IMG/VR virus record: IMGVR_UViG_2706794669_000004 | Source: a virus | Lineage: Duplodnaviria > Heunggongvirae > Uroviricota > Caudoviricetes | Direction: 5' to 3' (one strand) | Length of the DNA: 10,325 nt | Shown here: piece by piece, positions 6,714 through 7,283 of the stretch | Layout of the letters: each line of letters opens with the position of its first letter | How positions within the stretch are numbered: position 1 is the stretch's first letter | Program-made: the position numbers and the translations under genes | Notes under the pieces: generated by a model | What the model saw: the letters and a program-made list of their open reading frames with translations, nothing else | What the model was told of the DNA's origin: nothing | Databases searched by the model: none

Positions 6714-7283
6714 TTAAAACCGCATCAACCGCTCCACCAGTTGCTCTTTACGGGCAACGATCCACCCGTGTTGCTCCAGATAAAATTTAAACCGTTCCAG
6801 AGTACATACCATCGCATCGGCGGGTACCTTTTCCGTGAACTCAACCTGACCGTGTTTATCGAAGTGGCTCAGTAATGCGCATCCATCATTTTCGATAGAT
6901 GTGTTTTGTGCCGCTGGTGGCTGTTTCTGGTTGAAATAACAGTCTTCCAGTTTTTCGAACACTTCCCACGCCTGATCGGTTTCGAGCATTTTGGCGTGAC
7001 GGGCTGCGCCACGTTCTGTCCAGAGGATGAGGGAGCGAACGTTACGGGCAATTTTCACAGAAACTCTTAAAGAGTTTTCGTTCTTCAACTCTCGTAACGC
7101 ATCACCTTCTATCAGGAAAAAATGTTTACCTTCTATAAACCGTTCTTTGTTTCGATTGAAATTGTTTGTCAAACGCTGGCGCTCTGTTCCGTACAAATCA
7201 GCCAGCAGCTCTGTTGTCATGACAGGAAGATGGTTATGCGTAAGTGACGGGAGTTTTTCAATAGACGTGCGATTCATAGACAT
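6714..7283 (-). CDS. ORF6N/antirepressor-like DNA-binding accessory protein (moron downstream of late promoter)
   Basis: ATG at 7281-7283 with AAAGGAC upstream gives a 189-aa product MSMNRTSIEKLPSL...NFNRNKERFIEGKHFFLIEGDALREL...LWTERGAARHAKMLETDQAWEVFEKLEDCYF; the motif pattern recalls ORF6N/KilA-N-type phage domains. Family assignment is from memory (about 0.45); the ORF-track start at 7475 is an extension. Confidence 0.7.
   Translation of the reverse strand: MSMNRTSIEKLPSLTHNHLPVMTTELLADLYGTERQRLTNNFNRNKERFIEGKHFFLIEGDALRELKNENSLRVSVKIARNVRSLILWTERGAARHAKMLETDQAWEVFEKLEDCYFNQKQPPAAQNTSIENDGCALLSHFDKHGQVEFTEKVPADAMVCTLERFKFYLEQHGWIVARKEQLVERLMRF

Follow-up and report, generated by a model that had tools for sequence, protein, structure and literature searches.

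What keeps a predicted anti-repressor gene silent just behind the antiterminator gene Q of a lambdoid prophage, and is it a regulatory gene at all or late-operon cargo? The question is raised by a 10,325-nucleotide (nt) stretch of Caudoviricetes DNA (IMG/VR record IMGVR_UViG_2706794669_000004; hereafter "the window"), in which a minus-strand open reading frame (ORF), 7283..6714, encodes an ORF6N-domain protein of 189 amino acids (aa) counted from ATG 7283. Our reading, to which we give a probability of about 0.6, is that the protein is an anti-repressor of the AnrP family and the payload of an immI-like cassette between Q and the late promoter pR', its Shine-Dalgarno (SD) sequence being locked by an sRNA-Xcc1-class RNA and released by a decoy RNA. 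The gene and the part of the cassette nearest to it (module 2) are laid out as follows.

6714..7277, minus strand: AnrP-like anti-repressor gene, 187 aa (alternative ATG 7283 gives 189 aa); stop codon 6716..6714
6987..7241, minus strand: ORF6N domain, residues 15-99 of the 189-aa form, winged-helix-like fold
7293..7287, minus strand: SD target b2, UCGAAAG, exact complement of CUUUCGA, overlapping the SD sequence AAGGA (7289..7285)
7302..7296, minus strand: SD target a2, UCAAAAU, complementary to the junction GUUUUGAGC
7315..7398, minus strand: sRNA-Xcc1-class RNA, the C4 analog, with a closing stem, two hairpins and a 3' CACCC
7348..7342, minus strand: hairpin-2 loop of this RNA, CUUUCGA (from the sequence)
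7421..7476, minus strand: module-2 decoy element, with hairpin GGUG-CUCAAAA-CACC, sites a1 and b1, a second hairpin and a run of seven U (U7)
7473..7465, minus strand: decoy site a1, GCUCAAAAC, exact complement of the Xcc1-like RNA junction
7461..7455, minus strand: decoy site b1, UCGAAAG, exact complement of the hairpin-2 loop
7448..7428 and 7427..7421, minus strand: decoy terminator, hairpin CCACA...UGUGG and U7 (by eye and homology)
7484..7512, minus strand: module-2 promoter, TTGACA-17-TACATT (promoter scan, 10/12)

A sequence-only reading of this DNA had described a 189-aa gene at 6714..7283 with an N-terminal ORF6N/KilA-N-like domain, a C-terminal half without a recognised domain, and a possible anti-repressor function. 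The ORF is indeed intact on the minus strand, and the N-terminal domain is confirmed by Pfam PF10543 (ORF6N; residues 15-99, 74.4 bits against a cutoff of 27.8, E 9e-21, profile positions 5-86 of 86). Residues ~100-189 match no family in Pfam or NCBIfam profile searches, as that reading had it, and the NCBIfam search of the protein gave nothing significant. The anti-repressor guess gains support from PHROG 2379 ("anti-repressor"), which matches the protein along its whole length (E 3.2e-85, residues 3-189 against profile positions 2-187 of 187), and from homology to STM2616 of the Salmonella prophage Gifsy-1 (49.5% identity, 96% coverage; tblastn against phage genomes). A further 16 PHROGs match one or the other half of the protein, 12 of them labelled anti-repressor or transcriptional regulator. 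The profile search thus found the expected DNA-binding-type N-domain, and it also assigned the whole protein to a characterised family, an outcome that the sequence-only reading had counted against itself. The "Ant/antB" genes of Stx phages were matched in the same tblastn search through the N-terminal two thirds only.

STM2616 sits directly after Q, isrK and C4. Because SL2578 (AnrP) is described at that very position in strain SL1344 (Hershko-Shalev et al., 2016, PMC4825925), STM2616 appears to be AnrP, an equivalence by position that is not stated in that paper. Transcription of anrP in Gifsy-1 is driven from the isrK promoter, yet the message is untranslated unless IsrK is given in trans, when translation rises 139-fold (PMC4825925, Table 1). 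When AnrP is overexpressed, antQ-operon transcripts rise and Gifsy-1 is induced, with no need for isrK (PMC4825925). By sequence similarity, the window protein is a member of this AnrP/PHROG 2379 anti-repressor family, which is itself already known.

An ORF6N protein might instead be a regulator that binds DNA and, for example, activates the early/Q operon, or else a toxic factor of the Bro/KilA kind aimed at the host, with the lock guarding a harmful product. Such N-domains also occur in the repressor-binding Ant proteins of P1 and P22. We regard this alternative as unlikely, given that AnrP expression induces the prophage and that the architecture of the cassette is that of the immI anti-immunity systems.

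The lock itself is predicted from the leader. An Rfam search between Q and the gene returned four RNA elements above gathering scores, all on the strand of the gene. The one next to the gene is sRNA-Xcc1 (RF02221; full-length, 77.4 bits against a gathering score of 53, E 3.2e-13), and a covariance model of our own (R1) also detects it. Its hairpin-2 loop and its 3' junction, GUUUUGAGC, are complementary to b2 and a2, respectively. The decoy element holds copies of both SD sites and could therefore titrate the Xcc1-like RNA. As these upstream sites are preceded by a promoter and followed by a hairpin and U7, they would be releasable as a decoy RNA, analogous to IsrK. The decoy terminator was not flagged by the terminator scan (its loop is >8 nt), and in other Xcc1-type loci, among them L016, L021, L028, L034 and L042, a -35/-10 pair is seen by eye at the corresponding position.

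The complementarity is maintained between phages whose loops differ. The DNA of the Escherichia coli EC12 locus (L002) is ~88% identical to that of the window in the leader region, but its loop is CUACUGA and both of its targets are UCAGUAG, so all three places differ from those of the window (CUUUCGA/UCGAAAG), and in compensatory fashion. For a wider comparison we took the mean longest perfect complement, with own versus permuted partners, over 20000 permutations; permutation tests were used rather than column counts on a MAFFT alignment because indels in the variable loop shift the register. Among 16 specificities in the genomic loci (sampling given below), hairpin 2 matched its own gene leader over 7.12 nt (4.52 permuted) and its own upstream element over 6.56 nt (4.90 permuted), neither value being reached in the permutations (0/20000 each), and the junction sites followed the same trend. 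The 61 viral loci with unique loops gave 6.74 versus 4.46 for the gene leader and 6.90 versus 4.80 for the upstream element (again 0/20000 each). A complementary site of >=6 nt was present in 53 viral loci and ended 7-11 nt before the start codon in 47 of them, which places it on the SD sequence. C4-type loci obey the same rule (7.64 versus 4.80 permuted). RNAduplex energies gave the same trend with more noise. Complementarity and covariation together establish the potential of these elements to pair and the co-evolution of that potential.

From this we propose the following course of events. Translation of the gene would normally be blocked, and the constitutive promoter at 7512..7484 would yield mostly a short, terminated decoy RNA. 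Transcripts that read through would carry the ~84-nt sRNA-Xcc1-class RNA, whose hairpin-2 loop and 3' junction would pair the sites at 7302..7296 and 7293..7287 and so cover the SD sequence of the gene. The decoy would titrate this RNA and free the gene for translation, the part that IsrK plays for AnrP in Gifsy-1. Once made, the protein most likely inactivates the prophage repressor, switching on the early/Q operon as an anti-immunity function. As loop and target are hypervariable between phages, each RNA should silence its own ant gene only, which would amount to heteroimmunity. For the phage of the window, we infer repressor binding, translational repression, RNA processing with action in trans, and relief by the decoy by analogy with the known systems. 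The C4 RNA of P1 is processed and acts in trans.

The complementarity could also act in cis only, as a leader switch that sequesters the SD sequence within the same transcript or attenuates transcription, with no diffusible immunity RNA. The regulator and both sets of targets do lie on one transcript, the isrK-orf45 region of Gifsy-1 was described as having alternative cis structures A and B (PMC4825925), and the related RNAs of P4 and N15 act via premature termination (PMC3632133). Set against this, sRNA-Xcc1 is a discrete species of ~88-100 nt in Xanthomonas (PMC2996969), a processed species of ~80 nt arises from the C4 region of Gifsy-1 (PMC4825925), and hypervariable specificity over at least 60 variants is what selection for heteroimmunity in trans predicts. 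A purely cis-acting switch seems unlikely to us, and we prefer an RNA that would lock the gene in trans.

How general is the arrangement? We picked 80 genomic loci from Gamma-, Beta-, Alpha- and Deltaproteobacteria solely because they encode an ORF6N relative. The RNA immediately before the ORF6N-type gene was isrK plus C4 in 20/80, sRNA-Xcc1 in 25/80 and a P22-type sar in 1/80. In each of these loci, ~35-85 nt separate the RNA from the gene; C4 and Xcc1 thus share one slot. The sar case is a locus of Pectobacterium brasiliense (L049, 1381-1452), in which the antisense RNA lies on the opposite strand, a third, unrelated way of silencing such genes by RNA. In Mixta mediterraneensis (L011), two tandem isrK-C4-ORF6N cassettes (1245-1445 and 2249-2450) lie beside a P2-type GPA replication gene and share the hairpin-2 loop specificity, while their junctions differ (UUGGAAC versus UUUGCAC).

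The converse sample consisted of viral-contig loci picked only by a 24-nt Xcc1 core pattern. With our covariance model, nearly every one of the first 100 loci proved to hold an Xcc1-like RNA (103 hits). A co-oriented ORF followed 89 of 95 RNAs, and 78 of those ORFs start 30-52 nt away. Antirepressor-type N-domains accounted for 47 matches among 54 representative downstream products (KilA-N 12, Rha 9, Bro-N 8, ORF6N 8, P22_AR_N 5, AntA 5). We consider it likely that sRNA-Xcc1 belongs, with P1 C4, to one class of phage immunity RNAs and is widespread. Encoded in cis and probably processed, it would use its hairpin-2 loop and 3' junction as a programmable lock with two sites on the SD sequence of the next gene, to be opened by a co-encoded, terminated decoy. 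The window would then be a double-module mosaic of such systems.

The second half of the question concerns where the gene stands relative to the late promoter, for which the following features matter.

7758..8165, minus strand: antiterminator Q gene, 135 aa (Pfam PF06530 Phage_antitermQ, E 2.7e-52), directly upstream of the cassette
6610..6696, minus strand: late-promoter region, homolog of Stx-phage pR' (alignment A7 with VT2-Sakai; terminator scan)
6696..6691, minus strand: pR' -35, TTTACG (homology to VT2-Sakai)
6674..6669, minus strand: pR' -10, TATCCT (homology to VT2-Sakai)
6655..6648, minus strand: qut-like ACTACGCC (homology to VT2-Sakai)
6638..6617, minus strand: pR' terminator hairpin, followed by a U-run (alignment, terminator scan)

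The window Q is ~80% identical to Stx-phage Q. In the pR'/qut/terminator alignment, 88 columns are invariant across the four aligned sequences, and the pR' homolog also follows the ant gene in two E. coli relatives (L002 and L003). VT2-Sakai carries the annotation "putative late promoter / Q-utilization / terminator" abutting Q. The start site of PR' in Sp5 was mapped beside Q by differential RNA sequencing (PMC7547250), and the annotated position fits it. The order in the window is Q, cassette, pR', terminator, transfer RNA (tRNA) promoter and tRNAs. With the pR' homolog at 6696..6610, the gene falls between Q and pR' and so is no moron of the late operon. Its stop codon (6714) is separated from the -35 element of pR' (6696) by 17 nt, which hold no terminator of their own.

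The sequence-only reading had placed the gene between the late promoter/terminator and the tRNAs, in a moron position. That placement is wrong, as the pR' homolog is downstream of the gene. What had been taken for the late promoter and terminator after Q, a site at 7753..7724 and a terminator at 7662..7646, is isrK (Rfam, 77.5 bits); judging from these matches, the promoter and terminator just after Q belong to the isrK small RNA. A moron would be accessory cargo in the late operon past pR'/tR', antiterminated by Q or driven by its own promoter, and would benefit the lysogen. The gene does come after Q, with promoter-like sites upstream (promoter scan) and a terminator downstream, and cargo such as stx often lies in this general region of lambdoid phages. 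But the post-Q promoter and terminator coincide with the isrK RNA gene, and the terminator after the gene is part of the pR' unit of the Stx-phage pR'/qut/terminator homolog, whereas a moron would be expected downstream of pR'. The same cassette occurs in the nin region of VT2-Sakai, and the homolog AnrP is a phage regulatory protein. The moron reading thus finds no support in a gene that sits within a self-contained regulatory cassette of promoters, decoy RNAs and C4-type RNAs, and we hold it to be very improbable.

A Q-dependent late promoter made up of P_isrK and T_isrK, with IsrK as a "6S/StxS-like" RNA, was ruled out because the promoter-isrK-C4 cassette is found in the nin region of VT2-Sakai and a Stx-type pR'/qut follows the window gene. 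In VT2-Sakai the isrK-C4-ORF6N cassette (H0107) stands after ninE, ~2 kb before Q. In other genera, C4- and Xcc1-type cassettes often come after Q, and also after a P2-type replication gene or a tail gene. The cassette is portable. It lies upstream of pR', in the early-right region, in the lambdoid loci checked (window, L002, L003 and VT2-Sakai). A short transcript from the window pR' (6610-6696) would match the 5' part of the StxS-like RNA. In Gifsy-1 (L001, 4588-4662), isrJ lies 33 nt past anrP, where the window has pR' and its terminator; as no more than an idea, IsrJ might correspond to the short, terminated RNA made from the Gifsy-1 late promoter.

Upstream of module 2, the window retains an isrK-C4 pair (module 1).

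7724..7753, minus strand: module-1 promoter (P_isrK-like), TTGACC-18-TATATT (promoter scan, 10/12), beginning 5 nt past the Q stop codon
7717..7641, minus strand: isrK small RNA, the module-1 decoy RNA (Rfam RF01394, 77.5 bits)
7730..7678, minus strand: c4-a1b1 target element (Rfam RF03163, 50.1 bits), overlapping isrK
7692..7686, minus strand: isrK hairpin-2 loop, UUGGAAC (from the fold)
7662..7646, minus strand: isrK intrinsic terminator (terminator scan)
7532..7615, minus strand: module-1 C4-type antisense RNA (RF01695, 71 bits; minimum free energy (MFE) -44.9 kcal/mol, z = -5.0)
7522..7528, minus strand: UUGGAAC, the sole remaining downstream target of the module-1 C4, complementary to its 3' junction GUUCCAA (7560..7554)

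The promoter motif TTGAC-N17-18-"TCCGGGGCTATA(T/G)T" is kept before isrK in most of the C4-type loci examined. Although isrK and C4 lie upstream of the gene and on its strand, SD-proximal control has been replaced by the Xcc1-type RNA, and the second, SD-proximal C4 target is missing in the window. A comparison of 16 C4-type loci (in Python) found the junction target kept in 15, and the hairpin-2 target absent only in the composite loci (window and L002) and in the atypical L026. The best match in the window to the orphan C4 loop, CGAAACCGA at 6984..6976, is the only near-match; it falls inside the coding sequence, in the conserved codons for "LETDQ", and is no better than expected by chance. 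Gifsy-1 and most E. coli relatives carry isrK and C4 only, with an intergenic region ~200 nt shorter; the long composite leader is found in the window and in L002.

Homology to the short form stops at GACGGTG|TTGACAG (mosaic junction ~7513), exactly where the module-2 promoter starts, and relatives with the short form have a different protein N-terminus. For these two reasons, recombination appears to have brought in an Xcc1-type lock and, along with it, a new 5' end for the gene, orphaning the isrK/C4 pair. Having lost its SD-proximal target, the upstream module is probably either a relic or still a source of RNA that acts in trans. The orphan hairpin-2 loop UCGGUUUCC (within 7522-7730, minus strand) could pair with ant leaders of co-resident prophages, GAAACC-type sites such as those of L003 or L008 being candidate partners. 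IsrK and C4 are structural homologs of the P4 seqA and CI RNAs, and structurally similar RNA-based systems are found in P1, P7 and N15 (Barquist et al., PMC3632133).

The SD sequence bears on which start codon is used. ATG 7277 (187 aa) is more likely to be the functional start, judging from the spacing of AGGA (7288..7285), which is 7 nt from ATG 7277 and 1 nt from ATG 7283, and because the annotation of the closest E. coli ortholog begins at the corresponding ATG. The mechanical extension upstream to GTG 7475 (253 aa) is unconserved, with an in-frame TAG in L002. The frame is open over 7284-7475, through the RNA elements 5' of the true start. Database proteins such as P0141 (265 aa) are over-extended across the C4 region: the P0141 N-terminus (…HVSPPDDWNLT) matches the frame through the C4 region of the window (…CVSPPDDWNLT). 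Such N-termini are an annotation artefact. The nearest database relative is a 99% identical cluster of 106 member sequences, named from Shigella sonnei, which makes a Shigella or E. coli prophage the probable origin of the window. DNA related to the locus is present in ~1,350 of 5,426 complete E. coli genomes, in which the gene is annotated "ORF6N domain-containing protein" beside "antiterminator Q".

Beyond the ORF6N domain, the protein ends in a small module.

6720..6881, minus strand: C-terminal beta-hairpin and two-helix module, residues ~133-186, after a low-confidence linker

An AlphaFold model built with 40 homologs was confident for the N-domain (predicted local distance difference test (pLDDT) 69-90, mostly 76-90), of low confidence for the linker (residues 113-131) and weaker for the C-domain. 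A second model of the C-terminal ~55 aa, built from a more varied alignment, shows a small alpha/beta module in which two helices come after a beta-hairpin (pLDDT 77-93). A Protein Data Bank sequence search with the protein gave no match at E<=10. The family of this module is narrow, with 25 representative clusters among 1.84 billion proteins. As it is fused elsewhere to AntA+Ash and to Rha N-domains, we regard the module as a shuffled part of the anti-repressor "Bro network", to judge by its domain partners; partner specificity and oligomerisation are candidate roles for it.

The whole window covers the right arm of a lambdoid prophage, with the gene order given here along the minus strand. 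Before the ant gene come genes for a DnaB-like helicase, an 85-aa ORF, RusA and Q (PF06530), and after it four tRNA genes, an insertion sequence (IS) fragment, lysozyme, Rz, HNH, TerS, TerL and portal.

6214..6563, minus strand: tRNA promoter-like site (6563..6534) and tRNA genes Met-CAT, Arg-TCT, Thr-TGT and Gly-TCC (ARAGORN, Rfam, promoter scan)
5197..5819, plus strand: IS3-family transposase fragment (orfA with HTH_Tnp_1 and a truncated second ORF), between the tRNAs and the lysozyme gene (5128)

The tRNA cluster shares its layout with that of VT2-Sakai, although the tRNAs there are others (Ile, Arg, Arg), and any cargo that once followed the tRNAs has been replaced by the IS fragment. This fragment occupies the place of the holin gene of E. 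coli relatives.

The state of the prophage allows another explanation, namely that the cassette is a decaying remnant whose gene and RNAs no longer function. The IS fragment at 5197..5819 in the holin place and a module-1 C4 RNA without its SD-proximal target fit such decay. Yet the ORF is intact and belongs to a 99% identical cluster of 106 sequences, module 2 keeps perfect complementarity of 7-9 nt at all sites, and an identical cassette is present in the IMG/VR viral contig L112. We therefore find decay improbable and keep to an anti-repressor gene under a predicted RNA lock.

Several observations do weigh against that view. Complementarity alone cannot separate a processed, trans-acting RNA from SD sequestration in cis within one transcript. 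In the MFE fold, the loop CUUUCGA is partly self-paired through its UCGA palindrome, and the z-score of the fold is only -1.6. The model for Gifsy-1 itself consists of a leader ORF (orf45) and alternative structures, not a C4 repressor (PMC4825925), and binding of AnrP to a repressor was deduced by its authors from transcript levels and induction. The prophage repressor lies outside the window, so that no cognate partner can be named. Finally, the lysis cassette and the prophage are probably defective, since the IS fragment sits at the holin place and no holin ORF is seen upstream of the lysozyme gene in the window, and the cassette may no longer matter to this element.

On its own, the gene is one more AnrP-like anti-repressor from a family present in about a quarter of complete E. 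coli genomes, and is no news. The corrected map matters for predicting which genes Q controls, such as toxin or tRNA cargo. If the wider reading of sRNA-Xcc1 is true, the gene it locks nearly always belongs to the anti-repressor network of KilA-N, Bro-N, ORF6N, Rha, AntA and P22_AR domains, and the window is a mosaic in which an Xcc1-type lock displaced a C4-type one, the orphaned isrK/C4 being able to cross-talk with the ant genes of co-resident prophages. It would offer a testable mechanism for the silencing of anti-repressor genes in lysogens of many Proteobacteria. The natural pairs of RNA loop and SD target, at least 60 in number, could explain heteroimmunity and cross-talk between prophages, and could serve as orthogonal translational locks. 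Annotations of sRNA-Xcc1 in Xanthomonas, Xylella and the APSE phages would be re-read as markers of immI-like cassettes and not of virulence regulation, and where the RNA lies near symE, the same lock may gate other harmful genes.

How does the cassette compare with known systems? The sRNA-Xcc1 family (RF02221, from Xanthomonas campestris), whose model the window RNA matches, was described as a trans-acting small RNA regulated with virulence (PMC2996969). In integron cassettes of Xanthomonas it precedes the toxin gene symE, and in Xylella it occurs as five tandem copies in a genomic island and beside C4 and isrK in strain De Donno (10.1101/2025.06.18.660453, PMC12189769). In APSE phages, its presence ahead of an ORF6N gene has been recorded but not interpreted. 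The literature we searched holds no C4-like pairing of sRNA-Xcc1 with a downstream SD sequence and a decoy; the original 2011 description was outside this search, and prior recognition is possible.

The anti-repressors GfoA and GftA of Gifsy prophages and Tum of 186 (PMC3121763) likewise have their genes elsewhere than in the immunity region of their lambdoid or P2-like prophages. They are small, unrelated proteins controlled through a LexA box and located next to dinI, whereas control in the window is by antisense RNA with no conserved LexA box. LexA control of the GfoA kind was rejected for the window: the only nearby CTG-N10-CAG (7506-7521) has a GC-rich core and is absent from the ortholog in L002.

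VT2-Sakai (Sp5) H0107, annotated "similar to TP901-1 Orf6", has the same type of promoter-isrK-C4-ORF6N cassette, with leader DNA 84.7% identical, and shares the Q family and the pR' sequence with the window. It differs in that its pR' abuts Q, while the window has the cassette between Q and pR', together with the Xcc1-type module.

The isrK-orf45-anrP locus of Gifsy-1 in Salmonella Typhimurium (PMC4825925) has the same order of Q, promoter, isrK, C4 and ORF6N protein, and the same Rfam models find isrK and C4 in both loci. In the window, however, the SD sequence of the gene pairs with a second RNA, of the sRNA-Xcc1 class and with its own promoter and decoy, and not with C4. Gifsy-1 also has the orf45 leader, whereas no conserved small leader ORF of this kind, ending at the ant start, was found in the window (the extension being closed by TAG in L002), and its Q is annotated as phage-82-like, whereas that of the window is PF06530 (933W-like).

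The immI locus of P1/P7 (c4-icd-ant) likewise has a small RNA upstream of the anti-repressor gene on the same strand, with duplicated two-part targets, a1 b1 before and a2 b2 after the RNA, the latter at the ribosome binding site, and with target sequences that vary between heteroimmune phages (layout of Citron & Schuster, 1990, as given in PMC3632133). In the window, C4-type RNAs stand upstream of ant as RF01695 (7615..7532) and the structurally analogous RF02221 (7398..7315). The two-part targets form a full set for the Xcc1-type RNA, and the C4 keeps a1b1 and one downstream site. No icd/orf45 leader gene is coupled to ant in the window. Compared with P1, the proximal RNA is RF02221 and not RF01695, the target overlaps the SD sequence of ant itself and not that of the icd leader gene, and the upstream targets carry their own terminator and so are separable as a decoy RNA. 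The window system is thus of the immI/IsrK-C4 kind, with an sRNA-Xcc1-class RNA as its proposed operative lock and a retained orphan module, and the Xcc1-type lock is what appears to be new.

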